From a virus: 64,000 nt of DNA. Of the stretch, positions 22,040 through 62,660 are shown piece by piece. The position numbers were made by a program, and so were the translations under genes. Position 1 is the first letter of the stretch. Each line of letters opens with the position of its first letter. The notes under the pieces are model-generated. The model saw only the letters and a list, made by a program, of their open reading frames with translations, did no database searches and was not told where the DNA came from. Location: IMG/VR virus record IMGVR_UViG_3300033475_001387. One strand, given 5' to 3'.

Positions 22040-22110
22040 GGTTCAGGTGTGCAGGGATCGCCTACTTCTTCTGAAAAGGTTATGGCGAACCCGTTCTCGT
22101 TCTCTGGGCC
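22040..22110 (+). ncRNA. Y-RNA-like unit A (short)
   Basis: GTGTGCAGG...TACTTC 5' motif, GGGATCGCC/GGCGAACCC stem, GTTCTC 3' motif, closing stem GGTTCAGG/TCTGGGCC. Confidence 0.55.
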
Positions 22111-22118
22111 GCAGATTT

Positions 22119-22262
22119 GCCCCTGCTGGGTGTGCAGGCGTCGCTTACTTCCGCCTGTTAAGCGGCTGATATCGGTTCGAGTCCGGTCGGCGGCTTCGGC
22201 CGCTGTAGCTCAATCGGCAGAGCAGCTACGTTCGCGGCACCGACTTGTTCTCCGGCAGGGCG
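22119..22262 (+). ncRNA. YrlA-like Y RNA unit B with permuted tRNA domain
   Basis: Order: anticodon-like hairpin (CT-GTT-AA), T arm ATCGG-TTCGAGT-CCGGT, 7-bp acceptor closed by TTCG, D arm GCTC-AATCGGCA-GAGC. Confidence 0.8.
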
Positions 22263-22285
22263 AGCGTTGATAACTGAATATCGCA

Positions 22286-22387
22286 CCTCCCGGTGCGTTG
22301 GCCACGGATTCTTCGGTCGCCAGGGGTTCGCCCCACTTTCCGCGCTCTGACCGGCGCGGGTCCGTAGCCGCTTTGATCTCGGGAGGA
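22286..22387 (+). ncRNA. Y-RNA-like unit C
   Basis: Closing stem CCTCCCGG/CGGGAGG, inner GGCCACGGAT/GTCCGTAGCC, 3' motif CTTTGATCTC. Confidence 0.6.
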
Positions 22388-22396
22388 GAAGCATCG

Positions 22397-22544
22397 GGTC
22401 GCGCCCGGTGCGCAGGCTACGGGTACTTCCTGGATCCAAGGGTCGCTGGTTCGAGTCCAGCCACCGCCCCTCCGTGGGTGGTGTAGCTCAGTTGGCAGAG
22501 CATTGGCACTGTTCCGTCGCCGACTTCTGATCTCGGGCGCGACC
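22397..22544 (+). ncRNA. YrlA-like Y RNA unit D with permuted tRNA domain
   Basis: Closing stem GGTCGCGCCCG/CGGGCGCGACC; T arm GCTGG-TTCGAGT-CCAGC, looped acceptor CACCGCCC/GGGTGGTG, D arm GCTC-AGTTGGCA-GAGC. Confidence 0.8.
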
Positions 22545-22577
22545 GCCGCTCCTCCCGCATTCTCGTGGGAGTAGAGC

Positions 22578-24239
22578 ATGTCGAAGTTCAACCGCAGCAC
22601 CGTCCGGCCGGCTGTCCACTCGCCGGTCACCTCCGAGACCACCCCGTCCGGGCGCACGTTCGAGGGCGGCGCCGGCTACGCGCGAGACGCGAAGTCGGAG
22701 CTGTTCTTGCTCGCGGTCACGAACATGGTCGGCGAGAAGACGTTTTACGAGTCCGCGGAGGCGCGTGACGGCCGATTAGAGGCGCTCGTGCATCGGGTCG
22801 CGGTCGAGGACCCGGACTGGTTCGGCCGGTTCGTGCCGTGGGTGCGCTCGGACGCGAACATGCGCACCGCGTCCCTCGTAGCGGCCGCTGAAGGCGTCAA
22901 GGCGCGGCTCGACGCGGCCAAGGGCAGTGAGGGCCTGGGCACGCAGATGACTGTCGGCCACCAGACCGAGGACCACGCCGCCGGTGGTCAGAACCGCAAG
23001 CTCATCGCGGCCGCGTGCCAGCGTGCGGACGAGCCGGGCGAACTGCTCGCCTACTGGGTTTCCCGGTACGGTCGGACGATCCCGAAGCCGGTCAAGCGCG
23101 GCATCGCTGACGCCGCGGCGCGCCTGTACACCGAGCGCAGCCTCCTGAAGTACGACACCGCGTCCAAGGGCTACCGGTTCGGCGACGTCATCGACCTGAC
23201 GCACCCGGCGCCTGCCGGCGACAAGGCGCTCTGGCAGGGCGAGCTGTTCCGGCACGCCCTGGACCGGCGCCACAACCGCGACAACGGCATCCCCTCGGCG
23301 CTCACGGTCCTGCAGCGCAACGCACTGCTGCGCTCCGAGGGCGAGCCGGCCGACTGGCTGAACCCTGACACGCTCGCCGCGGCCGGGATCACGTGGGAGG
23401 ACGCGCTCTCCGCGGTCGGGTCGAAGGTCGACAAGGCCGCGCTGTGGTCGGCGCTGATCCCGTCGATGGGCTACATGGCGCTGCTGCGGAACCTGCGCAA
23501 CTTCGACGAGGCCGGTGTGCCCGACGCGATCGCGCAGACCGTAGCGGCGCGCCTGGCCGACCCGGCGGAGGTCGCCCGGTCGCGGCAGCTGCCGTTCCGG
23601 TTCCTCTCCGCGTACCGGGCGGCGCCGTCGCTGCGCTGGTCCTACCCGCTCGAGCAGGCGCTCGGCCACGCGCTCGCGAACATCCCCGCGCTGCCCGGTC
23701 GCACGCTAGTCCTCGTAGACACCTCGTCGTCGATGCACGCCGGGTTCTCGAAGGACGGCACGCTCATGCGCTGGGACGCGGCCGCGCTGTTCGGGATCGC
23801 GCTCGGCCAGCGGTGCAAGGCCGCGGACGTGGTGTCGTTCTCCTCGGCGCAGTACTACCACCACGACCCGGTCGGCGCGAAGACGAAGCCGTACCCGCTG
23901 CGCGCAGGCGAGTCGCTGCTCAAGTCGCTGGAGCGGTGGACAGCCGACGGGTACTTCCTCGGCGGCGGCACGGACACGCCCGCGGCGCTGCGCACCGAGT
24001 TCCGCGGCCACGACCGCGTGGTGATTGTCACGGACGAGCAGGCATCGGCGAACAGCGGCGAGGTCACGCAGGCGGTCCCGGGCTCAGTGCCGGTCTACAC
24101 CTGGAACCTGGCCGGCTACCAGTACGGGCACGCCCCGTCCGGCTCGGGCAACCGGCACACGTTCGGCGGGCTCACAGACCAGGCGTTCCGGATGATCCCG
24201 CTGCTCGAGTCGGGTCATGACGCGGTCTGGCCGTTCTGA
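22578..24239 (+). CDS. TROVE-domain RNA-binding protein (Ro60/Rsr ortholog) with VWA domain
   Basis: [62 protein letters not shown]. Confidence 0.92.
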
Positions 24240-24252
24240 CGGCGCACCTCGC

Positions 24253-24288
24253 ACGCTGCCCCCGAGACCTGCGTCTCGGGGGCAGCGT
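24253..24288 (+). terminator. Perfect 16-bp hairpin after TROVE gene
   Basis: ACGCTGCCCCCGAGAC-ctgc-GTCTCGGGGGCAGCGT. Confidence 0.7.
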
Positions 24289-24366
24289 CGTTTGCGGCCC
24301 GATGTGGAGAATCACCCACTGCCACACTGGTCACGGCATATCGCACCTCGAAGGACAGGGCGTCTC

Positions 24367-24570
24367 ATGGCAAACGGCACGGTGAAGTGGTTCAACGCGG
24401 AGAAGGGCTACGGGTTCATCGCCACCCAGTCCGGCCCGGATGTCTTCGTGCACTACAGCGCGATCCAGACCGACGGCTACAGGGAGCTGACCCAGGGCCA
24501 GCAGGTCGAGTACGAGATCGAGCAGGGTCACAGGGGCCCGCAGGCGGCGAACGTCAGGATCCTGAGCTAG
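24367..24570 (+). CDS. cspA: Cold-shock domain protein
   Basis: [15 protein letters not shown]...DVFVHYSAI...GPQAANV. Confidence 0.95.
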
Positions 24571-24902: not shown

Positions 24903-25361
24903 TCAGGCGTTTACTCGCTCGAGCACGGCGGCTGGGTCGTCGAGGCGACCGCACACGCACCTGGATGGGCGCGCCTCCTGCGGGCAGACGGCGAGCGACG
25001 CCCACACGCACTTGCCGGTGTTGGTGGGGTCGGTGTCCCAGTCCTCGGCGAGCGCCTCGACGATGGCCAGCCCGCGGCCGCCCTCCGCGTCGGCGGCGGC
25101 GATCTCGGGCCGCGGCAGCGCCACGGCCGCGTCGTGCACCTCGATGAACAGCAGCCCGGAGTCCTCGTACACGACCATGCGGGCGGGCGCGACCCCGTGC
25201 AGGAGCGCGTTGGTGACCAGTTCGGAGCCGAGGAGTTCCGCCGTCTCGGTCAGGTGCTCGAGCCCTGCCTTGGTGAGGGCGGACTTGATGGCGGCGCGGG
25301 CGCGGCCGGCTACGGCCGGTGTGAGCGGTTCGAGCCGCATCTGCAGGAGCGGCGCGGTCAC
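24903..25361 (-). CDS. Anti-sigma-factor-type ATP-binding protein (HATPase_c, RsbW-like)
   Basis: SELVTNALLHG N-box, EVHD, EGGRGLAIVEAL, GKCVWA. Confidence 0.88.
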   Translation of the reverse strand: MTAPLLQMRLEPLTPAVAGRARAAIKSALTKAGLEHLTETAELLGSELVTNALLHGVAPARMVVYEDSGLLFIEVHDAAVALPRPEIAAADAEGGRGLAIVEALAEDWDTDPTNTGKCVWASLAVCPQEARPSRCVCGRLDDPAAVLERVNA

Positions 25362-25753
25362 CGGGCTGTCCCGATCTCGATGTGCCGGATCGGCAGGACC
25401 GCGGTGATGGTGTTGCCGCCGGCGCCGTGCAGTTGGACGTCCCACAGGCTCGCGTAGGGGTCGATGCGGGCGCCGAGGTCGCCGACGTCCGTCAGGGCAG
25501 GCCCGGAGTCAGTGACGGCGAGGGTTATCACGGCGTCCGCGGAGACGGTGATCGTGGCCGGCGGGTGGACGAGCGCCCAGGCCGCGAGCGCCTCGGCGAC
25601 GAGCCCGGCGGCGGCGATGGCGGGCTTGGGCAGGTGCCGGTCGAGCTCCGCGAGGGCTCCGCGCGTCCAGTCGGCGGCGCGGGCCGGCTTGGCGGCGTGG
25701 TCGAAGGTCTCTGTGGCGGTGGGGATCGCCGGACGCGTCAGCGCACTGATCAT
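25358..25753 (-). CDS. Degenerate HATPase_c-like protein
   Basis: Same topology (AR.W.R..L, LAVTDSG) but N-box and GRG box absent. Confidence 0.5.
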   Translation of the reverse strand: MISALTRPAIPTATETFDHAAKPARAADWTRGALAELDRHLPKPAIAAAGLVAEALAAWALVHPPATITVSADAVITLAVTDSGPALTDVGDLGARIDPYASLWDVQLHGAGGNTITAVLPIRHIEIGTAR

Positions 25754-25859
25754 CAGTCGGCCTCGGGTCGACGGTGACCTTATGTCACCTGGTAGCGCTC
25801 ACGGTAGGACCGTGCGGCACCCGAAATATGCGCCCATCGCATATGCGCATGATGCACTG

Positions 25860-27068
25860 TCAGGCGACCTGCAGGCGCGTGGCCATCCGGTGCATCCGGC
25901 CCCTGATCGAACGCCTCTCGGCGCGCAGCAGCCCGCGCATCACCGCCTGCGCCATGGGGTGGTTGCGCACCAGTTCCGGGGCGAGCGAGTCGGCGCGCTC
26001 GAGCGCAGCAAGCGACCTCTCCGGGTCGCCGATCCACGCGAACCCGCGGCTGGTGTCGAGGTAGTGGTGCGCCAGGCGCGAGGGCGGGATGTCCGCGGGC
26101 ACGATCAGGCCGCGGGAGCGGCGCACCGCCTCGACACCGTCTCCGATCTCCACGGCGACCGCGACACGGTGCAGCCCGACGTTCCCGGCGGAGAACCAGG
26201 TCAGGTACGGGTCGCAGGCACCGGCACCGTGGGCGGCGTCGCCGGCCTGATCGAGCCTGTGGTAGGCCTCATGCGCGTTGCCTGCGCGCGCCGCGGTGAT
26301 CGCGGCGCGCAGGTGCAGCGCCCCGGTGAGGCTGAGCGCGCCGACGCCGGACGGGTCGGGCGCCTGCTCGACGATGGCGAGCGCCCGGTCGATCAGCGCC
26401 ATGGCGTCGGCCCAGTCGGCGGTGGTCCAGGCGTCGCGGGCGGCGAGGTAGTCGGCCATCGCGAGCATGCGCGGGTCATCGCAGTGTTCGGCGGCCCAGC
26501 GCACCCGCCAGGCGGCGAGGACGACGAGGTCGGGGTAGCCGAGTCCGTGACCGAGCGAGTGGATCTCTTTGCAGGTGTGGGCGAGCAGCCGGAACGCGGC
26601 CTCGCGACGGGCCTGGCCCGGGTCGGTGGTGGCCGCGTGCAGTTCAGTGACGAGATCCACGGCCTGGATCCCCAGCTGCACGTACTTGGCCTGGCCGCGC
26701 AGGCGCGTGAGCGCGGCGAGCTCCTCGGCGAGCTGCTCGAGCGGCCGGTGCTCGGAGCGTTCCGGGGCGAGGTCGAGGCGGCGCAGGTGCCGCAGCAGGT
26801 CTGTGGCGGCGTCGTGGCCGCGGCGCGCCGGTGCGGCCGGGTCATGCAGGGGCCGGCCGGTCAGTTCGTTCGGGTGCGCGCGCAGGGCTCGGGCGAGTTC
26901 GTTGAGCTGGGAGACGGAGTCGAGTTCGTACTCGCCTTTCTCGATCCGCGAGATCCAGGACTGGTCGCGTCCTACGAGATTGCCGAGTTCGGCCTGTGTC
27001 ATGCCGGCGCGCTTGCGGAGCATGCGGACGCGCTCGCCCGGGGTCTCGTGGATGGGCACTTCGCTCAC
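25860..27068 (-). CDS. XRE-family HTH regulator with large helical C-terminal domain
   Basis: RVRMLRKRAGMTQAELGNLVGRDQSWISRIEKG. Confidence 0.9.
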   Translation of the reverse strand: MSEVPIHETPGERVRMLRKRAGMTQAELGNLVGRDQSWISRIEKGEYELDSVSQLNELARALRAHPNELTGRPLHDPAAPARRGHDAATDLLRHLRRLDLAPERSEHRPLEQLAEELAALTRLRGQAKYVQLGIQAVDLVTELHAATTDPGQARREAAFRLLAHTCKEIHSLGHGLGYPDLVVLAAWRVRWAAEHCDDPRMLAMADYLAARDAWTTADWADAMALIDRALAIVEQAPDPSGVGALSLTGALHLRAAITAARAGNAHEAYHRLDQAGDAAHGAGACDPYLTWFSAGNVGLHRVAVAVEIGDGVEAVRRSRGLIVPADIPPSRLAHHYLDTSRGFAWIGDPERSLAALERADSLAPELVRNHPMAQAVMRGLLRAERRSIRGRMHRMATRLQVA

Positions 27069-27106: not shown

Positions 27107-27685
27107 ATGGAGCGGATTGTGACTGATCAGCCTCGACCGGTGGTGTACGTGGTGGGGTGCGGTGCGCGGGCGGCGGCCGAGCTGGGCCGGGCGGTGTCGC
27201 TGGCGCAGGCGGCCGGCTTCACGGCGTGCGTGGTGCTCACGCCTGCCGCGATGGAGTTCGCCGGCGATCTCGGGGCGCTGCGCGAGTTGACCGGGCATCC
27301 GGTGCGCTCGACGTACAAGCGGCCGGAGGAACCGGACGCGCTGCCGTTGCCGGATGCGTTCCTCGTCTCGCCGCTGACGTTCAACTCGCTGAACAAGTGG
27401 GCGGCCGGGATCAGTGACACGCTCGCGATGGGCCTGTTGAACGAGTCGCTGGGGATGGGCGTGCCGATCACGGCGGTGCCGTGGCTCAACGCCCAGTTGG
27501 CGGCGCACCCGGCGGTGGCGCCGTCGATCGCCCGGCTCGAGGCCGCCGGGGTCCGGTTCACCTCGGGCCTGGGGCATCCCTCGACGCGCATTCCCGGCCC
27601 GGACGGGAAGACGGGTACGCCGGTCTACCCATGGTTGGAGATCGAGCAGGCGCTCGTGGAGATGGCGGCCGCGGCCCGGGCGTAG
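27107..27685 (+). CDS. HFCD-family flavoprotein
   Basis: VVLTPAA, DAFLVSPLTFNSLNKWAAGISD, P.LN...AHP. Confidence 0.85.
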   Translation: MERIVTDQPRPVVYVVGCGARAAAELGRAVSLAQAAGFTACVVLTPAAMEFAGDLGALRELTGHPVRSTYKRPEEPDALPLPDAFLVSPLTFNSLNKWAAGISDTLAMGLLNESLGMGVPITAVPWLNAQLAAHPAVAPSIARLEAAGVRFTSGLGHPSTRIPGPDGKTGTPVYPWLEIEQALVEMAAAARA

Positions 27686-27737
27686 CGACGTGTGGATCCG
27701 GCCTGCAGGGTCGGGTGGATGCGCTTAGCCTGGGGGT

Positions 27738-28616
27738 ATGCCGACGTCGGCGTGGACGGGTTCGATCAGCTTTGGCCTGGTCAACGTGCCCGTGCAGCTG
27801 TACAAAGCGACAGAGACGCACAGCGGGCCGGACTTCCACCAGGTCCATGTCCCCGACGGCGGGCGGATCCGACTCAAGCGGTTCTGTGAGCTGGAGGACG
27901 TCGAGGTGCCGCTGCATGAGATCAGTCGCGGTCTCACGGTCGGCCGGCGCGAAGTGGTGCTGACCTCGGCGGACATGGACACCCTGCCGCTGCCCTCGCG
28001 GTTCGTGATCGACGTGCAGGCGTTCGTGGACGCCGGCACGTTCGACGCCGTCCAGTTCGACCAGGCCTACTACGTGGGCCTGCCGCGGCGCACCCCCGGG
28101 AAGCCGTATGCGCTGCTGCGGGAGGCGATGCGGGAACGCGGCCAGGTCGCGGTCGCGAAGGTCACGCTCACCACCCGGGAGTCGCTCGCGGTGCTGCGCG
28201 TGGTCGGCGACATGCTCGTGCTGCACACGATGCTGTGGCCCGACGAGGTCCGCTCACCGCAGGGCGTGCCGACGGCGGACGACGAGATCCACTCGAACGA
28301 GCTCAAGATGACGATCTCGCTGATGCATGCCATGTCGCGGGACTTCCGCTTCGAGGACCTGCACGACGAGTATCGGCACGCCCTCGAGGAACTGGTCGAC
28401 GCGAAGCTGCACGGCGAGCAGCCCGCGGAGATCCGGCGGCCGCGGCGCGCGGTCGTCGACATCACGAAGGTGCTCGCGGAGTCGCTCGCAGCCGCGGAGG
28501 CGGCACATCCCGCCCACGAGCCGGAACCGGCGCCGAGGAAGCAGGCGGCGAAGAAGCCAGCGCCGGCGGCCAAGAAGGCGCCCGCGAAGAAGACCACGCC
28601 GCGGCGGACAGGCTGA
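27738..28616 (+). CDS. ku: Ku DNA end-binding protein
   Basis: WTGSISFGLVNVPVQLY, KPYALLREAM, Lys/Ala-rich tail. Confidence 0.95.
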   Translation: MPTSAWTGSISFGLVNVPVQLYKATETHSGPDFHQVHVPDGGRIRLKRFCELEDVEVPLHEISRGLTVGRREVVLTSADMDTLPLPSRFVIDVQAFVDAGTFDAVQFDQAYYVGLPRRTPGKPYALLREAMRERGQVAVAKVTLTTRESLAVLRVVGDMLVLHTMLWPDEVRSPQGVPTADDEIHSNELKMTISLMHAMSRDFRFEDLHDEYRHALEELVDAKLHGEQPAEIRRPRRAVVDITKVLAESLAAAEAAHPAHEPEPAPRKQAAKKPAPAAKKAPAKKTTPRRTG

Positions 28617-52951: not shown

Positions 52952-52952
52952 C

Positions 52953-53156
52953 ATGCCGTCCAACCACACCCCGCGCGGCCTGACCGTCGCGCTCACCACC
53001 GGCTCCACGCTCATCGTCGCGCTCGCCGTCGCCGAGCGCGCGCTCCCAGCCGAGAAGTGGCCGCTGCGCATCGCCGCCCTCGCTGTGCTCGTGATCCTCA
53101 CCGTCATCGCCGCCGCCCACAATGGCCGGCCCGAACAGCCCCGACCGGAGCAGTGA
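52953..53156 (+). CDS. Small two-TM membrane protein
   Basis: Two hydrophobic helices. Confidence 0.55.
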   Translation: MPSNHTPRGLTVALTTGSTLIVALAVAERALPAEKWPLRIAALAVLVILTVIAAAHNGRPEQPRPEQ

Positions 53157-53158
53157 CC

Positions 53159-53644: not shown

Positions 53645-54045
53645 ACACCGCGACCATGCTCCTGCTCGCCGTGATGCTCCACTTCGTCGGGGACTACGTC
53701 ACCCAGTCCCACTGGATGGCCACCGAGAAGACCAACCGCCACCTGCCCGCGATCATCCACGGACTCGTCTACGCGCTGCCCTTCCTCATCCTCACCCGCT
53801 CGCTGGCCGCGCCCGCCGTCATCGCCGGCACGCACATCATCATCGACCGCTACCGGCTCGCCCGGCACCTGGTGTGGGCGAAGAACCTGCTCGCCCCGCG
53901 CCGCGCGCGCCGGTCGTGGGCGGAGTGCTCGGCCACCGGCTACCCACCGGAGACTCCGGCGTGGCTCGCCGTCGGCCTCATGATCGCCGCGGACAACACG
54001 GCACACATCCTGATCAACACTGCCGCGCTCGCGTGGCTGCACTGA
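53641..54045 (+). CDS. DUF3307 family membrane protein
   Basis: LHFVGDYVTQSHWMA.EK...HGLVY...THIIID. Confidence 0.8.
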   Translation: MNTATMLLLAVMLHFVGDYVTQSHWMATEKTNRHLPAIIHGLVYALPFLILTRSLAAPAVIAGTHIIIDRYRLARHLVWAKNLLAPRRARRSWAECSATGYPPETPAWLAVGLMIAADNTAHILINTAALAWLH

Positions 54046-54087
54046 CCGCAAGCAACCCCCCGACTGACCGCGAAGGAGACCACGCAC

Positions 54088-54342
54088 ATGGCCACCGCCC
54101 CCATCCCCGTCCACGAGGCCGACGACGAGATCGAGGACCTGTACATCCCCGACTTCAAACTCGTCAAGGAGCTCGCCCAGCGCGTCACCGACAACCACGG
54201 CAAGTCCGCGCGGCTGCCCCAGGTCGCCGGCATGCTCGACACCTGGGACGAGACCAAGAACCTCGACCTCGGCCAGCAGGAAATCCTCGCCGACGAGATC
54301 GTCGACGTTCTCGCCTCCCGCGACAACGGCCGACGGCGGTAA
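54088..54342 (+). CDS. Hypothetical protein
   Basis: AAGGAG RBS. Confidence 0.6.
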   Translation: MATAPIPVHEADDEIEDLYIPDFKLVKELAQRVTDNHGKSARLPQVAGMLDTWDETKNLDLGQQEILADEIVDVLASRDNGRRR

Positions 54343-54364
54343 CGAACCCTGACTCGTGGAGGCT

Positions 54365-54688
54365 CTAGCTGGCCGACCCACTATCCGACGCCCGACCTTC
54401 ACCGGTCGGGCGTTCGGCGTCTGTCGACTTGTGCGCAGATCTACCGCCGACATAACCGGTCGCGATCTGCTGGGCGCGGGCCCGGGTAATGCCGAGCTCG
54501 TCTCCGATGACCGTGTAGCTGCGGTCCTCGTGCATGGCGTTGACGGCTTCCCGCCGTGCCTCGCGCAGCCACGTCTGGAGCGCCGGCACGGCGTCGATCG
54601 CCTGCATGAGCGCCTTGGCGCGTGCAGTGGGATCGGGCTCGTCGGCCAGGCTACCGAGCACCTCGAACGGGGGCGGGGGCGCGTCCAT
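54365..54688 (-). CDS. Small HTH regulator
   Basis: RSYTVIGDELGITRARAQQIATG. Confidence 0.75.
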   Translation of the reverse strand: MDAPPPPFEVLGSLADEPDPTARAKALMQAIDAVPALQTWLREARREAVNAMHEDRSYTVIGDELGITRARAQQIATGYVGGRSAHKSTDAERPTGEGRASDSGSAS

Positions 54689-54696
54689 GGGGACAG

Positions 54697-54739
54697 TGTA
54701 TCGGGCCCCCTTGACGCTGACTAGGGGACCCTATACATT
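54697..54739 (+). promoter_or_regulatory. Promoter flanked by 15-bp inverted repeat
   Basis: TTGACG, 17 bp spacer, TACATT; TGTATCGGGCCCCCT / AGGGGACCCTATACA (13 of 15 complementary). Confidence 0.7.
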
Positions 54740-54778
54740 AAAGATGCCAGCACGGACCGCCGAACGAGGAGCCGAACA

Positions 54779-55069
54779 ATGCTCGCCCTAGCCTCGATCC
54801 TGATCCTCATCGCCATCGGCGCCCTGCTCGCGGCCGCCGGCACCGCAGGGTTCGTCCTCGTCTGGCAGCAGGCCTCATCGGCCGCCGACCTCGGTCACGC
54901 CCGTGTGACCGCTACGGCCGGCCGCTGGATGTCCGCGATCGGCCTGACCCTGTTCACCCTCCACCACACCGCCGCCGGCCCCGGTCTCGCTGCGCTCCTG
55001 TGCGTCGCAGCCCTCGCCGTCGCCACGCTCCTCACGAAATCCACCAGGCGCCTCGTTCACGCGCCCTGA
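54779..55069 (+). CDS. Small three-TM membrane protein (Spd-like)
   Basis: Three hydrophobic helices upstream of transfer genes. Confidence 0.6.
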   Translation: MLALASILILIAIGALLAAAGTAGFVLVWQQASSAADLGHARVTATAGRWMSAIGLTLFTLHHTAAGPGLAALLCVAALAVATLLTKSTRRLVHAP

Positions 55070-55168
55070 TATCGCTCGAATCGAAAAGCCCGAGGAACTT
55101 TGCCAGCTGAACCAGCCGGGAATTCCCCACCCCGCCCGGCGTAACGTAGAACCCGCACACATAAGGAC

Positions 55169-55205
55169 GGCCCCAAACCCGCTGACTCCAACAGCGGGCG
55201 GGGCC
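55169..55205 (+). repeat. Intergenic hairpin with GACTCCAA loop, copy 2
   Basis: GGCCCC..CCCGCTG-ACTCCAA-CAGCGGG.GGGGCC. Confidence 0.6.
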
Positions 55206-55239
55206 TAAACACCTCCGACGCTGAACTGGAGCGCCGCAA

Positions 55240-56211
55240 ATGCCTGCAGAGAAGGATAGCCGCACCGCGCCGCCGCCGAAACGCCGCGCGGCCCGACACG
55301 AGCCCACCCCACCCGTGCGCACCCCCAAGTCAGTGCGCATCGTCGCAGCCATCGGCATCCCGATCTCCCTCGCAGCCTCCGCCGCCGTCTCGTTCCAGGG
55401 CCTGTCCGGCCTGGGTGCGCTCATCGGCATCGCGCACCCGTGGCTGCTGCCGATCTCGATCGACGTCTACGCGATCACCGCCACCCTCATCGCGATGTTC
55501 CTGCCCGAGGGGCACCGGGCCCGGACCGCCGCCGAGTGGAACGCCCGGCTGGGCCTGGCCATGTCCATGGGCGGCAACGCCGCGGAGCGCGCGATCCACC
55601 TCGGCTCGTACACCGCCTCCGACGGCATCCTCACCTTCATCGGTGCGTGGCCGTCACTGATCGTCGAGCGACTGCTGCACCTGCAGGGCCGGCTCGCCGA
55701 CAGCGTGAAGACCACCGACACCGTCACCGACACCGAGGCGCCCGCGCCGACCGTCACCCGGCCGCGCAAGACCGACACTCCCGCGCGCGTCACCGTCACC
55801 GACACTCCCGCTCTGCCGCCGTCACCGACACCCGTCACCGACACTCTGGCCGACACTGCGCCCGTCACCGACACCGCGCCGTCGCCCGACACCGTCACCG
55901 CCCGCCCGACACTCGCGCCCGTCACCGTCGTCCGCGCGGCCGTCACCGACACCGACACCGACAGCGAACACGCCGAGCGCAGCCTCCCGTGGTGGGCCGA
56001 GAAGGCCGCACCCCTCTACCGGCAGTGGATGCGCGACCACAACGGCACCACCCCCGCCGCCCCCATGCTCGCCGATCTTCTGCGCAAGGCAGGCCACGAC
56101 GTCCCGGCCGGTGAGGTCCAGCGCCGCAAGATTCGGCGCGAGACCGAGACGTACATCAATGCGCACCCTGAGCCCGAGCCGGAGCCCGAGCAGGTCGGAG
56201 CCACGTCATGA
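55240..56211 (+). CDS. DUF2637/Spd-like membrane protein
   Basis: AAAVSFQGL..L...PWLLPISID...AMSMGGNA; TM N-terminus, Thr/Pro linker, C-terminal helical domain; coupled to FtsK-type gene. Confidence 0.75.
   Translation: MPAEKDSRTAPPPKRRAARHEPTPPVRTPKSVRIVAAIGIPISLAASAAVSFQGLSGLGALIGIAHPWLLPISIDVYAITATLIAMFLPEGHRARTAAEWNARLGLAMSMGGNAAERAIHLGSYTASDGILTFIGAWPSLIVERLLHLQGRLADSVKTTDTVTDTEAPAPTVTRPRKTDTPARVTVTDTPALPPSPTPVTDTLADTAPVTDTAPSPDTVTARPTLAPVTVVRAAVTDTDTDSEHAERSLPWWAEKAAPLYRQWMRDHNGTTPAAPMLADLLRKAGHDVPAGEVQRRKIRRETETYINAHPEPEPEPEQVGATS
55714..55964 (+). repeat. Co-oriented CCGACAC repeat array (candidate clt)
   Basis: 12 copies of CCGACAC, six within GTCACCGACAC, in more than one reading frame. 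Confidence 0.7.
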
Positions 56212-58517
56212 GCCTCATCAACCGCCACGCTTCAAGGGCCGCGGAGGCCGAGAACCTCGACGCAATCGGGGATCTCGACGCGGCCGGGGCCGAGCTCGTC
56301 GTGCGTGGCGTAGCGGAGCGCCGCATCGACCCGTACCGCACGACCAGCGGCAACACGATCATTCCGCGCCAGGGATACGCTCCAGGGCCCGCCATGGTGG
56401 CCCACGCCTACTCGCCGTTCTCCGGCGAGCTCCCGGCCCACGTGGCGGATCAGATGACCCCCGGCCGGGCCGACCGGACCGCGTGGGCGTTCTTCCAGTG
56501 GCTCCAGGACCGGCACCTGCTGCCCTCCGCCGCGGTCCTCGCCGGCCTCGTGTGCGGCTGGGGCACCGCCCTGACCGAACCCGACCACGTGCCCCTGGGC
56601 GCGGTCACCACGGCCTTCGGTCTGGTCGGCGCCCTCGGCTACGGCGGGCTGCACGTCATCCGGTCGATCAACTCCGACAGTGAGCCGATGCACCGCTCGC
56701 AGCACGCTGTCGGTCTGCTCGGGCTCGTCGCCACCGCGTTCGGTGTCGTCTGCATCACCGGACCGTCGTTCTACGGTGTCGGTGTCACCCTGCTCGAACT
56801 CGGTGTCGCCTACTGGGCGTACTTCGAGCACCGACACTCCAGGCTGTCGGATCAGCGGGAGTTCACTGTCGCCTACCACGCCGCCGTCACTCAGCAGATC
56901 GTGGCAGTGTCGGGCGACAGTGGCGCCGCGATGCAGCCGCTGCCGCTCGACGGCCAGGTCCTCTCCCACGAGGAGACGATGGTCCGCAACGCGTTCGACG
57001 GCATCGGGATCGGCCTGTCCGACATCTACGGCTTCTCGCGGATCAACGAGTCGTCGTTCGCCGTCACCGTCGTGCTGGCGCCGGCGAAGGGCATCAGCCC
57101 CGACGCGATCATCCGGCGCCGCGAGGAGATCAAGAGCGCGCTGCAGGCGAACCAGGTCCTGATCACGAAGACGCGCCGCGGCCACGAGGTGCGGATCACC
57201 GCGCGCTACGGGGAGATCGACGAGCTCGCCGAGACGATAGAGGCACCGGGCATCACCGTCCGCTCGATCAAGGAGCCGATCCCGCTCGGGCCGGCCGCTA
57301 CCGGTGAGATGTCGCTGCTGCACCTGCTCGGCAACCACACCGTCATCGGCGGCACGACGAACAACGGAAAGTCCGGTCTGGTCAACAACATCGTCACGCA
57401 GGTCGTGCCGATGAAAGACGCGCGCCTGGTTCTCCTGGACTGCAAGCCCGGCCAATTGGAGCTCGGGATTTACGAGGACGTCGCGTACGCGTCGGCGGAT
57501 TCATTCGAGCGCGCAGCGTTGATTCTGAAGGCTCTGGTCGCGGTGATGAATATCCGCGGCGCGAAGCTCAAGAAGCTGCGCCTGGAGTCCGGCAAGCCCG
57601 CGCGACAGTGGGACACCGAGGACGGGCCTGCCCTCGTCGTGGTGATCGACGAGCTCGCGGAGCTGTTCCGCGACCTCAAGCAGACCGAACTCAAGAAGAT
57701 CAAGAATGATGTGCTGCGCGACGCGATCGAGCACATGAACGCGAACTTCGTGCGTCTGTGCCAGGTCGCCCGCGCCTACGCCATCTCCCTGGTCATTGCG
57801 ACACAGAAGCCGGACGCGCTCGCGGCCGGCGGTGTGAAGTCCGGTGTCGACCAGGCGCAGAACCGGCTGTGCGTCGCGACCACGAGCTCGCGCCTGACGA
57901 ACATCGTGCTGCGTGAGGGCGCACACGGCGAGGGCTTCAAGGCGACCGAGCTCGACGTGGCCGGCAAATTCCTGATGATCACACTGAAGGAGGCGCTGAA
58001 GGTCGAGCGCAAGTCCTTCTGGTGGACCGACGAGCGCATCGCCGAGGTCGTCGAGCAGAACGGCGAGGACCTCGCCCCACTGGCGGACGATGAGGATGAT
58101 GCGTTCAAGGCGATCCTCGCCGGCCGCAAGCCCGACTTCGAGATCCCCTCCCCGTTCGACGACCCCGACGGCACGGAGGACGAGTGGGACGAGGAGGAGT
58201 TCGACGACACGCCCGCCGCCGACCCGCGCCACGGACTGCGGCTCGTGCCGGAGTACCCGGACGGCAGCGTGATCGAGACCAAATACCTGGCGTGCTGGGA
58301 GATGCTCGCCACCTTCGGCGACCGCGGCGCGACCGTCGCAGACCTCTCCGTCGCCGCCAAGCGCGCCGGGCACGAGAACAGCTCGCTCGCGTGGGTGCGC
58401 AACCTGTGCGCGGAGTGGCGCGCCGCCGGTTACGTCGTGGTCGAGCAGCAGGGCCGGGACTTCCGGTACTGGCGCGACGACGCCGCCGTGCGCCAGCAGT
58501 TGCGGATGGAGGCGTAG
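56208..58517 (+). CDS. FtsK/SpoIIIE-family conjugative DNA translocase (TraB/TraSA-like)
   Basis: N-terminal TM helices, Walker A GGTTNNGKS, LLDCKPG, Walker B VVIDELAE, ATQKP, C-terminal winged helix. Confidence 0.9.
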   Translation: MSLINRHASRAAEAENLDAIGDLDAAGAELVVRGVAERRIDPYRTTSGNTIIPRQGYAPGPAMVAHAYSPFSGELPAHVADQMTPGRADRTAWAFFQWLQDRHLLPSAAVLAGLVCGWGTALTEPDHVPLGAVTTAFGLVGALGYGGLHVIRSINSDSEPMHRSQHAVGLLGLVATAFGVVCITGPSFYGVGVTLLELGVAYWAYFEHRHSRLSDQREFTVAYHAAVTQQIVAVSGDSGAAMQPLPLDGQVLSHEETMVRNAFDGIGIGLSDIYGFSRINESSFAVTVVLAPAKGISPDAIIRRREEIKSALQANQVLITKTRRGHEVRITARYGEIDELAETIEAPGITVRSIKEPIPLGPAATGEMSLLHLLGNHTVIGGTTNNGKSGLVNNIVTQVVPMKDARLVLLDCKPGQLELGIYEDVAYASADSFERAALILKALVAVMNIRGAKLKKLRLESGKPARQWDTEDGPALVVVIDELAELFRDLKQTELKKIKNDVLRDAIEHMNANFVRLCQVARAYAISLVIATQKPDALAAGGVKSGVDQAQNRLCVATTSSRLTNIVLREGAHGEGFKATELDVAGKFLMITLKEALKVERKSFWWTDERIAEVVEQNGEDLAPLADDEDDAFKAILAGRKPDFEIPSPFDDPDGTEDEWDEEEFDDTPAADPRHGLRLVPEYPDGSVIETKYLACWEMLATFGDRGATVADLSVAAKRAGHENSSLAWVRNLCAEWRAAGYVVVEQQGRDFRYWRDDAAVRQQLRMEA

Positions 58518-58520
58518 CCG

Positions 58521-59984
58521 ATGGCCGGCAAGCCCCGGCGCCGCAAGCCGCCGGCAACGGCCGTGGACCGGGCGGTGCGCTCAGCGAAGCGCACCGCCCG
58601 GTCCATGACCCCGGACCGAGTGGTCGCCCGGTTCCTGAGCGGCGGGCGACACCAGACGATCGGCGCGATCGCAAGAGCGCCGTTCAAGGAGCACACGGTC
58701 GCCACCCCGAAGTCGGGCAAGCGCCGCTACCAGCAGATCGTGGCGAAGGAGCGCAAGGCCCAGGCGAAGAAGGCCGCTGAGACGAAGCGGGCGCAGGCCG
58801 CGGCACAGAGAGCTGTCCGCGCCCAGACGCGGGGCCAGAAGCCGCGCGCGCCGAGGCCGCAGCGGCAGCCGATCGCCGTGAACCCGCGCACCGGCAAGGC
58901 GATCACCTGGGGCCAGGCGCAGGCCGGTGTGCGGGCCGCGCAACGCGAGGTCGACCGGATCGAGCGGGAACTCGCCGGCGCCCCGGCGCCGCGCCCGCGC
59001 GCACCTCGGCCGAAGCCGGAGCAGGCGCCCGCCTCGAAGTCGCCGCTGCAGGCCGCCATCGCCGAGGTCAAGGCCAAGCAGAAGCCGCCGGACCGGACAC
59101 CGGCCAAGCCGAAGCCCCGGAAGAAAGCCGCCGCCAAGCCGCGCCGCCCGCTGGCGAAGAAGAACAGCGGCATCGAGACCGTCGCCGACCTGATCCCGGG
59201 CCGCGCGATCCTCGCCCCCACCACGCCGCAGCGCGCCACCCCCGGCGCGCCGACGGCGCCGTATGCCATCCCGCTGAGCCCGCGCTCTCGTGCCGCCCGC
59301 AAGGGCGGCAAGGGCGTGTACGGCGCCGTCCTGCGACGCACCTGCGAATGCGGCGGCACTGGCCGCATCCCCACCTACGACCCGAAGACCGCGGCACTCA
59401 CCGGCTCCGCCTCCTGCCCGGTGCACGGACGCCGCGCCCGCGGCACCCGCCGCCACTTCACCCGCACCGCCGCCCGCGACGCCGGCCTGCCCGGGCTCGC
59501 CGGGTACCTCGAGAAGAAGCGCCGCAACGGATCGAAGCGGCTCGACAAGCAGCAGGAACGCGTACAGCACCGCGCCGCCACCGACCTACGGCGCATGGGC
59601 CCGACCGTGCCGTGCCCGCAGACCGCGCACTGCGACAACGGAATCTGGGACCGCAAGGACAAGGACCGCGAGCGCGAGGCGTTCATCGCCGCGCACGTCG
59701 CCGCCGCCCGCGCCGAGGACCAGCCCGTCCCGTCGAACCGGAGACTGCGGAAGCTGGCCGCACAGGCACTGCCGTATGAGCACTGCGACACCTGCGGCGG
59801 CCTCGGCCGCGTGCCGACCTCGACCGAGGTCACCCAGGACGGTCAGATCCCGGTGTGGGAGTGGCGTACCGGCGCGGGCCTGCGCTACGGACACCAGCCC
59901 ACGGCGCGCGAGCGCTCGACCGGCCGACGGCAGACCGAACACGCCGAGCGCGTCGAGCGCCGCCGCAAACTCCCCCGCCTGTAG
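58521..59984 (+). CDS. Basic protein with DnaJ-type zinc-finger motifs
   Basis: CECGGTGR and CDTCGGLGR; Arg/Lys/Ala-rich. Confidence 0.65.
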   Translation: MAGKPRRRKPPATAVDRAVRSAKRTARSMTPDRVVARFLSGGRHQTIGAIARAPFKEHTVATPKSGKRRYQQIVAKERKAQAKKAAETKRAQAAAQRAVRAQTRGQKPRAPRPQRQPIAVNPRTGKAITWGQAQAGVRAAQREVDRIERELAGAPAPRPRAPRPKPEQAPASKSPLQAAIAEVKAKQKPPDRTPAKPKPRKKAAAKPRRPLAKKNSGIETVADLIPGRAILAPTTPQRATPGAPTAPYAIPLSPRSRAARKGGKGVYGAVLRRTCECGGTGRIPTYDPKTAALTGSASCPVHGRRARGTRRHFTRTAARDAGLPGLAGYLEKKRRNGSKRLDKQQERVQHRAATDLRRMGPTVPCPQTAHCDNGIWDRKDKDREREAFIAAHVAAARAEDQPVPSNRRLRKLAAQALPYEHCDTCGGLGRVPTSTEVTQDGQIPVWEWRTGAGLRYGHQPTARERSTGRRQTEHAERVERRRKLPRL

Positions 59985-60146
59985 GCCCACCGAACCGTCG
60001 GTAGCTGACCACCTGATTAGGAAACAGGAAACACCTTCCCGCCCCCTTGCTGCAGCGGGAGAATCAGAACTAGAAGACGGGCCGCCACCGAGGCAACGGC
60101 GACGGCCCAGCCCCCTCCGTAGTACCGACGAAGGAGACACCACATC

Positions 60147-60608
60147 ATGGACCACTCCAGTCCGGGATCCAAGCCCCGGGTTTTGATCACCACGTACGGC
60201 AGCCTCCACGGCGCGCCGCCGAGGTCCGCGCCGTTCGCCGTGCTCGCACTCGACCTGCGCCACTCGCTGCGCAACCCGTTCGACGACCCGGCGATGCGCG
60301 AGTTGACCGGCCTCGACCCCGTCGTGCGCGACCACGTCCTGAACACCGACGGTGCCGACGCGATCCTCGCCGACACCACCGGGCGCCTGATGGCGCTGCT
60401 CGACTGGTCCGACCGGAAGAACGCGCAGACCGACCGCGACGACCAGGTCACCTTGCACGTGTTCTGCAAGGGCGGCCGGCACCGTTCGGTCGCCGTAGCC
60501 GAGGAGATCGCCGCGACGCTCCGCTCCGCCGAAATCAGCGTCGGCGTCGAGCACCGCGACGTCACCAAGCCCGTGATCCAGCCGACTTCCGCGACCCAGG
60601 AGGCGTGA
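60147..60608 (+). CDS. RapZ C-terminal-domain-like protein
   Basis: ITTYG..HG...DLR..LRNPF.DP.MRELTG.D..V...V...C.GGRHRSVA. Confidence 0.8.
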   Translation: MDHSSPGSKPRVLITTYGSLHGAPPRSAPFAVLALDLRHSLRNPFDDPAMRELTGLDPVVRDHVLNTDGADAILADTTGRLMALLDWSDRKNAQTDRDDQVTLHVFCKGGRHRSVAVAEEIAATLRSAEISVGVEHRDVTKPVIQPTSATQEA

Positions 60609-60610
60609 CC

Positions 60611-60808
60611 ATGGCGAAGAAGATGCCGACCCACGGCATGGACGACGACACGCGCCAGATGTGGGCCGAAGGCAAGCTCGAAACGTTCTCCTACGTCGCG
60701 AAGAAGGCACGTCAGGACGGCAACCTCGCCGAACAGCAGTGGGCCAACGACGGCATGAACGAGATGCTCGACCACCTCGAGGACATCAAGAACCGCCGGC
60801 GCGGATAG
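60611..60808 (+). CDS. Hypothetical protein
   Basis: GGAGG RBS; 65 aa. Confidence 0.55.
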   Translation: MAKKMPTHGMDDDTRQMWAEGKLETFSYVAKKARQDGNLAEQQWANDGMNEMLDHLEDIKNRRRG

Positions 60809-61015: not shown

Positions 61016-61849
61016 ATGCCTCTACCAGCGCGCCCCTACTGGGTCCACTCCGACCCGGCCACTCCCGAACCCGCCGCCCCGGTGCCGCCCGCACCGAGCG
61101 CCGGCCCGTGCCCGCACCGCTGCAACCGCGACTGGCGCAAGGCGGTGGAGGACTACGACAAGGCCGTCGCCGCGTGGGCCGCCGCCGGGTACCGCGGCCA
61201 AGAGCCCGCCCCCGTCGAGATCGAGCCGTGGCCCGGCGAGCCGATCCTGTGCCGCCGCTGCACCGCCACCGTCCGTGCCGCCCTACGCGAACTGCCGCGC
61301 GCGTACGACGCGCTCGCCGCCGTACCGTTCCTCACCCGGTCCGCGTCCGCGGGCGAAGAGCGCCGCGGCCGCTCCGACGTGCCCGCCTCGCCCAGCCCGG
61401 GCGCCGACCACCAGGACGAGATCCTGCGCCTGGCCCGCGAGTGGGAGGACGCGGTCCGCAAGCACCTGGGCCACGCTGCGGCGACCGACGCATTCGGCCG
61501 CCCGACCGCGACCCTCGCGGCCGCGGTCGAGTATCTGAACGCGAACTACACCGCGCTGCTCGAGTGGGAGCGTGACCCGGTCGAGGAGTTCGCCCGCGAC
61601 ATCGAACGCGCCTTCTCCACCGCGGTGGCGATGGTCAAGAACAAGCCCGTGCGCAAGCACCTACCCGTGCCCTGCCCGACCTGCGACACCCTCAGCCTGA
61701 TCCAGGAGGAGGGCATCGCGGGCAAACCCTGGTACGTCGAATGCGTCGAGCGGGCCGGCGGGTGCGGCCGGCTGTTCACCGAGTCCGAATACTCGTGGCT
61801 CACGCAGCTCATCACCGATGGCCACGTACCGACAGCGGCCGCCGCATGA
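61016..61849 (+). CDS. Zinc-finger phage protein in late-regulator position
   Basis: LCRRC..V...L.ELP..Y and C-terminal CPTC...C.....GC; precedes HTH and tRNAs as in actinophages. Confidence 0.65.
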   Translation: MPLPARPYWVHSDPATPEPAAPVPPAPSAGPCPHRCNRDWRKAVEDYDKAVAAWAAAGYRGQEPAPVEIEPWPGEPILCRRCTATVRAALRELPRAYDALAAVPFLTRSASAGEERRGRSDVPASPSPGADHQDEILRLAREWEDAVRKHLGHAAATDAFGRPTATLAAAVEYLNANYTALLEWERDPVEEFARDIERAFSTAVAMVKNKPVRKHLPVPCPTCDTLSLIQEEGIAGKPWYVECVERAGGCGRLFTESEYSWLTQLITDGHVPTAAAA

Positions 61850-62097
61850 ACGGGCCGACGCACTACCTGACGGTCGCCGAGGCCGCGCTCTTCACCGGCC
61901 GCTCCGAGCGCACGATCCGCCGATGGATGAACAACCAACTCCTGGCGATCTACCGGCGCGGAGACGGGATCCTCGTGCTCGACGTCAAGGAGCTCGCGCG
62001 CATCGAACGCCAGCAGCGCAACGCCAACCCGACGGCCCGGAGCAAGAAGCGCGCCGCGACGTTTGCACTGGTCCGCCCTGTTGACCTATCCTCCTGA
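61846..62097 (+). CDS. HTH DNA-binding protein
   Basis: LTVAEAALFTGRSERTIRRW. Confidence 0.8.
   Translation: MNGPTHYLTVAEAALFTGRSERTIRRWMNNQLLAIYRRGDGILVLDVKELARIERQQRNANPTARSKKRAATFALVRPVDLSS
62063..62092 (+). promoter_or_regulatory. Candidate late promoter
   Basis: TTGCAC, 18 bp spacer, TATCCT upstream of tRNA cluster. Confidence 0.45.
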
Positions 62098-62219
62098 GTA
62101 ATGAGGCGCAGAGCGCCCGCAGCAGACTTCGAGGACCCTGGCTCATGTCGGGGTCCTCTGTCGTTCCCGACCCGAAATCCGGGTGCGATCACCCCAGGCC
62201 GCCGCGTACCGTCGAGCCA

Positions 62220-62293
62220 AGCAGGGTAGCGCAGCCGGTTAGCGCGTCGGTTTCATACGTCGAAGGTCGCGGGTTCGAGTCCCGTCCCTGCCC
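62220..62293 (+). tRNA. tRNA-Met(CAT) with A1:C72 mismatch
   Basis: D arm GCGC, loop TT-CAT-AC, T arm GCGGG-TTCGAGT-CCCGT; no encoded CCA. Confidence 0.8.
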
Positions 62294-62295
62294 CC

Positions 62296-62368
62296 GGGGT
62301 TGACGCTGAGGTAGCGGGCCTGTCCTGCAAACAGGCTGCAGTCGGTTCGATTCCGACCTACTCCACCA
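62296..62368 (+). tRNA. Atypical tRNA, Ala(TGC)-like or Cys(GCA)-like
   Basis: G3:U70, A73, CCA; stem CCTGT/ACAGG centres TGC with C33; short D loop. Confidence 0.65.
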
Positions 62369-62395
62369 CTCGGACGACGGAACCGCCCGGGCGCT

Positions 62396-62476
62396 GGCGC
62401 GGCTGCTGGGACAGAACGGGGTCTGTAAAGCCCTGGCCTCCGGGCTCGCTAGGTTCGATTCCTAGACGCGCCACCA
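62396..62476 (+). tRNA. tRNA-Tyr(GTA), long variable arm
   Basis: CT-GTA-AA loop, T arm CTAGG/CCTAG, ACCA end; D arm degenerate. Confidence 0.75.
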
Positions 62477-62500
62477 CGTAGATTCCGCTTCTCCAGCCGC

Positions 62501-62572
62501 GCCGTGTTAGCTCAGTGGGTAGAGCGTCGCTCTCGTAAAGCGGAGGCCAGGGTTCGAACCCCTGACGCGGCT
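62501..62572 (+). tRNA. tRNA-Thr(CGT)
   Basis: Canonical cloverleaf; CT-CGT-AA loop. Confidence 0.88.
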
Positions 62573-62583
62573 CGCCCCGTCGA

Positions 62584-62660
62584 AGCCCGGGGCTTCACCT
62601 CGACGGTCGGGGACGCGCCTGCAAAGCGCGCAGCAGTCGGTTCGACTCCGATCCGGGCAT
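62584..62660 (+). tRNA. tRNA-Cys(GCA)-like, atypical D region
   Basis: CGCGC-CTGCAAA-GCGCG, T arm GTCGG-TTCGACT-CCGAT, 6-bp acceptor GCCCGG/CCGGGC. Confidence 0.6.

Follow-up and report, generated by a model that had tools for sequence, protein, structure and literature searches.

Several genes for RNA-related proteins, together with a set of small RNAs, are scattered over a viral DNA of 64,000 nucleotides taken from the IMG/VR record IMGVR_UViG_3300033475_001387, and they raise the question whether they form one system or several. We refer to this whole stretch as the window; it represents 64 kb of the element, the remaining part lying outside the analysis. An initial annotation, made from the sequence alone, had read five modules between positions 22,040 and 62,660 as a single distributed RNA-protection toolkit: Ro60 with Y RNAs and a cold-shock protein (Csp), a Pnkp-like phosphatase with an RlaP-type nucleotidyltransferase, a Nudix hydrolase, a domain like the C-terminal one of RapZ (RapZ-C), and five tRNAs. 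Window genes were called from codon-position GC (guanine plus cytosine) content, and the relevant products were then scanned with profiles. The GC content of the window is 69-73% throughout and falls to ~65% at 34-40 kb. The toolkit view is borne out in part: three of its modules are RNA-related and of known kinds, whereas Nudix and RapZ-C appear to have been misassigned. The window probably consists of independently exchangeable modules, four of which are considered here, namely Ro/YrlA/Csp, phosphatase-RlaP, the tRNAs and a transfer block, carried by an actinophage; the RNA modules would share a selective theme and form no obligate single system.

RNA-related modules and their distribution

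The RNA-related modules consist of the following features.

22036-22112 and 22284-22386, + strand: units A and C, flanking unit B (total span 22036-22386); candidate short Y-like stem-loops, weak
22121-22262, + strand: unit B, YrlA-like Y RNA; Rfam YrlA 27.3 bits, E 0.002 (22167-22223, partial), Rfam tRNA 26.6 bits
22396-22545, + strand: unit D, the best supported YrlA-like Y RNA; Rfam YrlA 39.2 bits, E 7e-7 (22419-22526, full model length)
22578-24239, + strand: Ro60/Rsr homologue; Pfam TROVE E 3e-17, vWA weak (VWA_2 E 0.006)
24382-24570, + strand: Csp of the CspA/CspE type; Pfam CSD E 1e-29, NCBIfam CspE E 3e-28
39784-40242, - strand: stand-alone polynucleotide 3'-phosphatase, T4 Pnkp phosphatase domain only; HAD_PNKP E 3e-25
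40235-40960, - strand: RlaP-family RNA 3'-end nucleotidyltransferase; PF10127 E 1e-22, 81.4 bits against a cut-off of 23
62220-62573, + strand: tRNA-Met(CAT), tRNA-Ala(TGC), tRNA-Tyr(GTA) and tRNA-Thr(CGT), called by ARAGORN; Rfam 67, 58 and 36 bits for three of them
62585-62658, + strand: fifth, atypical tRNA-like RNA with a GCA loop; 30.7 bits, E 6e-4

The Ro arm was found as initially annotated, with a TROVE protein, a cold-shock domain and at least two YrlA-like RNAs, although the latter stay below the Rfam gathering score of 69. The Ro60 protein is full length; phage "Ro-like RNA binding proteins" match it over residues 1-553, and it shares 74% identity with its closest relative, which is encoded on contig G001. 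Both YrlA matches sit directly 5' of the Ro gene on the same strand, the placement of Y RNAs described for 254 bacteria and 22 phages (PMC4201824). The fold of unit D (-73.7 kcal/mol, z = -3.0) consists of a long stem that closes the structure, a T arm, an acceptor-like stem closed by a loop, and a D arm. Unit B has a similar fold with a permuted tRNA-like domain, and because of this tRNA-like fold a portion of it, 22119-22195, is called as "tRNA-Asn" by ARAGORN. Units A and C form modest stem-loops only (z = -1.4 and -1.9) and have no Rfam match.

With a TROVE protein and candidate tRNA-like Y RNAs immediately upstream in the same orientation, the locus resembles known Ro60/Rsr-Y RNA particles. 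It differs from them in that its RNAs score below the gathering threshold, occur in at most four tandem units and are followed, after Ro, by a Csp gene. The Salmonella Ro operon has an rtcB/rtcA neighbour, which the window Ro lacks. In the Thermus phage phiLo, Ro60 with two Y-like RNAs binds and attenuates the host polynucleotide phosphorylase, PNPase (PMC12135203). Ro60, the YrlA-like RNAs and Csp would correspond to an RNA-surveillance particle of a known phage type, whose partners are probably the host PNPase or misfolded RNAs. Two minus-strand genes at 24903-27068 run divergently to the Ro-Csp arm, one for a HATPase_c_2 protein resembling an anti-sigma-factor kinase and one for a regulator of 402 amino acids (aa) with an HTH_31 domain. 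Homologues of this regulator and of the neighbouring flavoprotein occur together in contig G002 (53% and 71%).

The expectation of five tRNAs holds for four of them, the fifth RNA being tRNA-like and atypical. Canonical scores are reached by only 2/5. The general tRNA model does not detect tRNA-Tyr or the fifth RNA, whose scores with the tRNA-Sec model are a sub-threshold 29-31 bits; in tRNA-Met, A1 and C72 are mismatched, and tRNA-Ala (36 bits) has a shortened D region. Two genes of the cluster encode their own CCA. Such a small cluster of partly atypical tRNAs would supplement or replace host tRNAs.

Whether these modules travel together was assessed in related genomes. The contig with the closest Ro protein, G001 (74%), and the three with the closest RlaP proteins, G002, G003 and G004 (63-74%), are IMG/VR contigs of 110-127 kb with ~70% GC. 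CheckV rates all four as 100% complete, and two of them (G003 and G004) have direct terminal repeats. G001 encodes no RlaP, HAD phosphatase or ligase, and conversely TROVE is found in 0/5 complete genomes with the closest RlaP. With Ro and RlaP apart in the nearest relatives, nothing indicates one integrated machine.

A broader view weighs against complete independence of the two modules. Among 50,697 GenBank phage records, 290 have relatives of RlaP and 91 have relatives of Ro; at least 16 records share both, where ~0.5 would be expected by chance. The two lists coincide in 13 Streptomyces phage records, and the phages VanLee and Atuin also carry both genes. RlaP furthermore occurs in 9/50 Ro-bearing IMG/VR contigs, and in 7/34 of those with a completeness of 90% or more. 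The Ro and RlaP modules may therefore have some functional link. The overlap in cultured phages collapses to about four lineages of large genomes. A baseline was attempted with single-protein scans (DnaB 3 loci, TraB-like none, G003 terminase 12 loci), which yielded too few genomes; thus, the Ro-RlaP association is uncorrected for phylogeny or genome size. Within the 50 Ro contigs, RlaP is closely associated with HAD_PNKP: five contigs have both, four and two have one only, and 39 have neither (odds ratio 24, p 0.001).

RapZ-C was found in 0/50 Ro-bearing contigs and in 0/8 genomes of the RlaP lineage. The cultured phages that do carry it, i.e., YDN12-like Streptomyces phages, Gordonia phage Tarzan and Corynebacterium phages, form a set distinct from the Ro/RlaP phages. 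The proposed co-occurrence of all modules holds weakly, at genome level, for three of them and fails for Nudix and RapZ-C. The outcome for Ro and the phosphatase-RlaP pair is mixed: they have a common theme and a genome-level association, yet they are freely separable.

The phosphatase-RlaP pair

The phosphatase and RlaP genes overlap by 8 nucleotides according to their coordinates, and we read them as a translationally coupled pair, with neither a kinase nor a ligase encoded in the window. Both proteins were recovered where the initial annotation had placed them. The phosphatase matches the phosphatase domain of T4 Pnkp (5uj0/1ltq, E ~1e-13) and keeps the motifs FDxDGTLA (DxDGT) and DDR; no kinase domain is present in its 152 aa, which have no AAA_33 match. 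In RlaP, the pol-beta GS/DxD motif (GS...DSDVD) is intact, and a PDB sequence search with this protein gave no match. The neighbours of RlaP are the phosphatase, DnaB and a DUF1524-like nuclease. Neither a neighbouring ligase nor any RtcB or Rnl was detected by Pfam among the scanned open reading frames of the window (all of at least 300 aa, most of at least 120 aa), in agreement with the earlier statement that these ligases are missing here.

The same arrangement recurs in relatives. Orthologues of the phosphatase in G002, G003 and G004 have 148-167 aa, 65-72% identity and no AAA_33 kinase domain, and their RlaP orthologues are 63-74% identical. The two genes are adjacent in the window, G002 and G003 and ~1 kb apart in G004, and these genomes share few further genes with the window. 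A different situation was found in the more distantly related phage genomes G005, G008 and G009, where an Rnl1-like ligase adjoins a long Pnkp and RlaP, and where a second ligase (PF09414) is often present; the AAA_33 kinase domain was confirmed in the Pnkp proteins of G005 and G009. These three genomes encode 15-39 tRNAs versus 0-2 in G002-G004. Cultured phages divide likewise: in GiJojo, Neville and Bromden the Pnkp frames are long (301-343 aa) and RNA ligases are present, whereas VanLee and Satis, with short frames of 155 and 173 aa, gave no match to Rnl1, PF09414, PF01068 or RtcB. RlaP genes elsewhere adjoin other phosphoesterases, namely a Metallophos protein in G006 and, as a weak match, HAD_SAK_2 in G004.

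These cases follow a simple rule: a phosphatase-only Pnkp goes with the lack of an Rnl-type ligase, and a kinase-bearing Pnkp goes with a ligase. Short, phosphatase-only frames (148-173 aa) are found in G002, G003, G004, VanLee, Satis and G018, with a ligase of the Rnl1/PF09414 type in 0/6. RtcB is absent in 5/5 of the short-frame genomes searched for it (G002, G003, G004, VanLee and Satis; G018 was not searched). Long frames (275-444 aa) are found in G005, G008, G009, Neville, GiJojo, Bromden, G026, G042, G047, G052, G054 and G056, a class in which the kinase domain is confirmed only for G005 and G009, and 11/12 of these genomes have a ligase. Fisher's test on this difference gives p ~4e-4 (no phylogenetic correction). 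The tally of 18 genomes includes Ro-bearing IMG/VR contigs besides RlaP relatives and cultured phages. As far as the pair is concerned, the earlier idea of a ligase-independent system thus gains comparative support, since the kinase-less pair occurs in complete genomes without RtcB, Rnl1 or Rnl2-type ligase.

Biochemistry directly explains why RlaP would be coupled to a 3'-phosphoesterase, namely by its need for a 3'-OH: Pseudomonas RlaP adds one or two nucleoside monophosphates to the 3'-OH of RNA and rejects both 3'-phosphate RNA and DNA (bioRxiv 10.64898/2025.12.29.696909). The proposed action is to "heal and extend": the phosphatase would convert the 2',3'-cyclic or 3'-phosphate RNA ends left by metal-independent RNases to 3'-OH, and RlaP, accepting only the latter, would then add one or two nucleotides. 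With no kinase and no ligase encoded, the likely substrates would be RNA or tRNA 3' termini rather than internal breaks for resealing. What is shown here is which domains are present, how the genes are ordered and which relatives have or lack them; the substrates, the order of the reactions and any role against host defence are inferences. In G003, a gene for a Thg1-like tRNA 5'-end polymerase lies directly upstream of RlaP (L096:7845-8621, minus strand); the window itself has no Thg1-like gene. Genes of the same tRNA-His guanylyltransferase family are also seen in G005 (~83.1-83.9 kb) and G008 (~77.2-77.9 kb).

Our tentative proposal, which we consider possible though not probable, is a ligase-independent pathway in which the pair, joined by the Thg1-like protein in G003, rebuilds RNA termini, e.g., acceptor or CCA ends of tRNAs that have been shortened by host defence RNases leaving 3'-phosphates, and does not reseal anticodon breaks. 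It may have arisen repeatedly from full Pnkp-Rnl-RlaP cassettes via joint loss of kinase and ligase. Several points weigh against the heal-and-extend reading as such. The frame lengths refer to stop-to-stop frames rather than verified gene models. G003 has an ATP-dependent DNA-ligase-type gene (PF01068) ~4.5 kb from the cassette, which blurs the ligase-free class somewhat, and ligases of unrecognised families may be present. The biochemistry of RlaP was obtained with distant Pseudomonas homologues and is reported in a preprint, and the part of the element beyond the 64 kb may encode a ligase or kinase.

The nearest competitor is repair of breaks with help from the host, where the pair prepares the 3' side of a cleaved tRNA and the host phosphorylates the 5' end and seals. 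RlaP is located between a bifunctional Pnkp and Rnl1-/Rnl2-like ligases in G005, G008, G009, GiJojo and Bromden, so that break repair would be its ancestral or common context, and the published model has RlaP restore a lost nucleotide prior to ligation. From the enzymology, however, RtcB needs the 3'-phosphate that the phosphatase destroys, and ligases acting on 5'-phosphates need the kinase that is absent. Moreover, kinase loss tracks ligase loss in at least four lineages, which looks like a coherent pathway change and not like reliance on the host. We therefore regard host-dependent sealing as unlikely, and less so than the remaining readings discussed below.

Known systems help to place the end-rebuilding proposal. 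In its fold and catalytic motifs, the window phosphatase matches the C-terminal domain of T4 Pnkp, which with Rnl1 acts in "heal and seal" repair; unlike that system, the pair has no 5'-kinase domain, and no RNA ligase is found in the window or in the complete relatives G002, G004, VanLee and Satis. RlaP belongs to the family found in RNA repair cassettes of large phages (PMC7824862, citing Burroughs & Aravind 2016), and more distant relatives of the window RlaP occur in full Rnl1/Pnkp/RlaP cassettes. The distribution of RlaP is reported to mirror that of RNA ligases in jumbo phages (PMC7824862), and the window pair departs from this pattern by having RlaP without RNA ligase. A close likeness is given by Gordonia phage VanLee (NC_073474; genes 110, 114 and 126) and Streptomyces phage Satis (MH576962), both with RlaP, a short HAD_PNKP frame and a Ro-like protein. 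In VanLee, RlaP, phosphatase and Ro are located within 8 kb, with a "tRNA" call just upstream of Ro. Compared with the window, the proteins of these two phages are 38-50% (RlaP) and 40-47% (Ro) identical, and the genome backbones differ. Phosphatase and RlaP genes are ~1 kb apart in VanLee and ~120 kb apart in Satis, and overlap in the window.

Upstream of RlaP, two further features are located on the same strand.

41010-43536, - strand: DUF1524/GmrSD_C-like nuclease and ShosT/ShosA defence pair; PADLOC ShosA E 5.5e-67, ShosT E 1.2e-7
43629-44114, - strand: small HTH-like (helix-turn-helix) protein that may regulate the pair; 57% in tblastn to the G002 gene 119487-119966

The HTH-like protein has an Atlas feature match to HTH_3 families (score 0.90), which is a lead only; its G002 orthologue is directly upstream of RlaP and abuts it. 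The nuclease (41010-41654) reaches an Atlas score of 0.94 for DUF1524, ShosA is DprA-like, and ShosT is a phosphoribosyltransferase (PRTase). This block is missing from the corresponding position in G002; it looks like a defence islet inserted into the RNA-repair operon between the HTH-like gene and RlaP, and is not counted with the RNA set. A hidden ligase beside RlaP was considered and rejected: 41010-41654 resembles a DUF1524/HNH-type nuclease and 43629-44114 an HTH protein, and neither is a ligase.

The transfer-like block and the single-system reading

Nudix and RapZ-C are both present as initially annotated, at 50.3 and 60.1 kb. They are part of a plus-strand block at 48140-60808, comprising GntR, Nudix, a DUF2637-like protein, an FtsK/TraB-like ATPase with a partner of 487 aa, and RapZ-C.

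48653-49375, + strand: GntR/UTRA regulator, KorSA-like; Pfam GntR and UTRA
50304-50927, + strand: Nudix hydrolase, ADP-ribose-pyrophosphatase-like; Pfam NUDIX E 5e-22, perfect Nudix box
55240-59984, + strand: plasmid-type transfer core of DUF2637-like protein, FtsK/SpoIIIE TraB-like ATPase (56208-58517) and 487-aa protein
60147-60608, + strand: stand-alone RapZ C-terminal-domain protein; PF22740 E 9e-24

The best NCBIfam matches of the Nudix protein are NtrR and NadM-Nudix, all below cut-off, and RppH-type models reach just 20-22 bits; it thus resembles ADP-ribose pyrophosphatases more than RNA pyrophosphohydrolases (RppH). Its GntR+UTRA and FtsK_SpoIIIE companions share its plus strand within 48.6-58.5 kb, and no integrase was found among the scanned window reading frames. 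In the transfer core, Pfam detects FtsK_SpoIIIE (E 5e-14) and DUF2637 (E 0.006), and the NCBIfam plasmid_TraB match (E 5e-9) is below cut-off; orthologues of the core are present in G003 and G004. RapZ-C, a protein of 141-153 aa, matches the C-terminal domain of E. coli RapZ (5o5s, E 3e-8) and keeps the C-GG-HRSV motif. Its match to the RapZ model is confined to residues 161-278 (a full-length RapZ has about 280 aa); it has no N-terminal P-loop kinase-like domain and is therefore not RapZ proper.

This gene set is well known from mobile elements of actinomycetes. Integrative and conjugative elements from actinomycetes (AICEs) and Streptomyces plasmids typically combine a GntR regulator KorSA, an FtsK-like Tra protein and a Nudix protein Pif, which in pSAM2 mediates conjugal immunity (PMC2440964, PMC3218068). 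Like them, the window carries GntR, Nudix, the DUF2637-like protein and the FtsK/SpoIIIE ATPase in one co-oriented block; unlike them, its block lies inside what is most likely a tailed-phage genome and its TraB match is sub-threshold. RapZ-C was found on 136 actinomycete plasmid records, 102 of them from Streptomyces. A Nudix gene directly precedes RapZ-C in the transfer region of the Planobispora plasmid pPR2 (NC_019291, 11849-13128), where DUF2637, ATPase, Nudix and RapZ-C have a thematic order matching the window, and again in NZ_CP108069 (67347-68307). In the 57-kb Streptomyces phages YDN12 and Geonosis, Nudix and RapZ-C lie within ~5 kb. Adjacency on two plasmids and proximity in these phages suggest a functional pair tied to the biology of mobile elements. 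RapZ-C has other neighbours on five further plasmids examined. The window Nudix is best read as a candidate Pif-like Nudix of the transfer module, and both proteins are assigned, by gene context, to this transfer-like block rather than to RNA care.

TraB-like and GntR homologues are also located in the complete contigs G003 (~83-93 kb) and G004 (~63-75 kb), both with direct terminal repeats, so a conjugation-type DNA translocase is recurrent in this phage group. Among the closest phage homologues of the window Nudix is a gene of Streptomyces phage ZL12 (NC_013420, 65314-65736). ZL12 is presumably a plasmid-prophage (pZL12), which would fit a phage-plasmid lifestyle for this group.

Against this background, the claim that all five modules cooperate to heal, re-tail, decoy or replace damaged tRNA during anti-phage defence can be weighed. 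Every domain it names is real. Large phages are reported to bring together, for counter-defence, tRNAs, RNA ligases, PNK/phosphoesterases, RlaP, TROVE and Nudix (PMC7824862), the Ro/RlaP overlap is complete in cultured Streptomyces phages, and in GiJojo and Neville Ro is surrounded by tRNAs, with an RNA ligase and a nucleotidyltransferase nearby. In the window, however, 10-20 kb with unrelated genes separate the modules, which lie on different strands, Nudix and RapZ-C accompany plasmid transfer genes, the phages with RapZ-C are a different set, and Ro and RlaP part in the closest relatives. What stands of the single system is the presence of phage gene kinds for RNA care; their working as one machine we hold to be improbable.

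Remaining readings, the carrying phage and implications

For the pair itself, a role in signalling instead of repair was also considered: it might remove 2',3'-cyclic-phosphate damage signals read by RtcR-type CARF sensors, or tail host RNAs. Cyclic-phosphate tRNA fragments are reported to regulate the host RNA repair operon (PMC7790460), and phage enzymes that process cyclic phosphates were proposed to blunt signalling (PMC7824862, section 3.4.8). The Thg1-like gene beside the pair in G003, from a family that restores tRNA 5'-end nucleotides (PMC7824862), points to repair instead, and erasure of signals or marking of RNA appears very improbable.

The window encodes a flavoprotein-family gene followed by a Ku homologue at 27107-28616 on the plus strand (Ku at 27738-28616, Pfam Ku E 2e-39). 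The phage Ku may have a part in protecting ends or in circularisation. DNA 3'-phosphates are also substrates of the T4 Pnkp phosphatase, and the pair adjoins a DnaB helicase gene; still, processing of DNA ends by phosphatase and pol-beta-family transferase with this Ku and a host ligase, in the manner of non-homologous end joining, is hardly credible, as characterised RlaP enzymes do not use DNA, G002, G003 and G004 have the pair without any Ku homologue, and the window Ku is 11 kb off on the other strand.

The element itself was assumed by the initial annotation to be phage-like, and synteny with the complete phage genomes G003 and G004 (110-116 kb, 70% GC) supports this. Methylase, DnaB, HAD phosphatase with RlaP, GntR and TraB-like genes follow the same order in all three. 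G003 and G001 encode terminase, portal, major head and tail/tape-measure genes; a search of the relatives with Pfam Phage_capsid gave no match, and the capsid was detected with PHROGs. DNA nearly identical to the window was not found in phage or plasmid collections, and no sequencing run was listed as containing the locus. Since the window shares sparse gene content with any single relative, the region is, as judged from its genes, highly mosaic.

A reading of the whole window as a Streptomyces-type plasmid or AICE was dropped, given its synteny with complete phage genomes that have direct terminal repeats, terminase, portal, capsid and tail. It had been based on the TraB-like, DUF2637-like, GntR, Nudix and Ku genes, two DnaB, a RepB-like primase, methylases and the DprA-PRTase pair, and on weak matches solely to Streptomyces plasmids. 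The two DnaB-type helicases are full length and on opposite strands (9505-10923, + strand; 38317-39645, - strand), the first being preceded by a RepB-like primase/initiator (7651-8877) and an IstB/DnaC-like loader (8882-9556). From these comparisons, the window most likely represents one half of a tailed, high-GC actinophage of ~110-130 kb, namely its accessory and non-structural part, which includes a plasmid-like transfer block.

The toolkit of phage RNA repair and tRNA genes has already been published and is as such ordinary. The window deviates from published accounts in combining phosphatase and RlaP without kinase and ligase. What is added here is the placement of Nudix and RapZ-C in a plasmid-like transfer module and a testable rule by which loss of the kinase goes with absence of the ligase while RlaP is retained in tight coupling to the phosphatase. 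If the pair does work without sealing, it would represent a second mode of phage RNA repair, the rebuilding of ends as opposed to the joining of breaks, and would be a hint of host defences directed against the 3' ends of RNA. VanLee and Satis are cultured and genetically tractable and have the same arrangement, which makes this a question for the bench.

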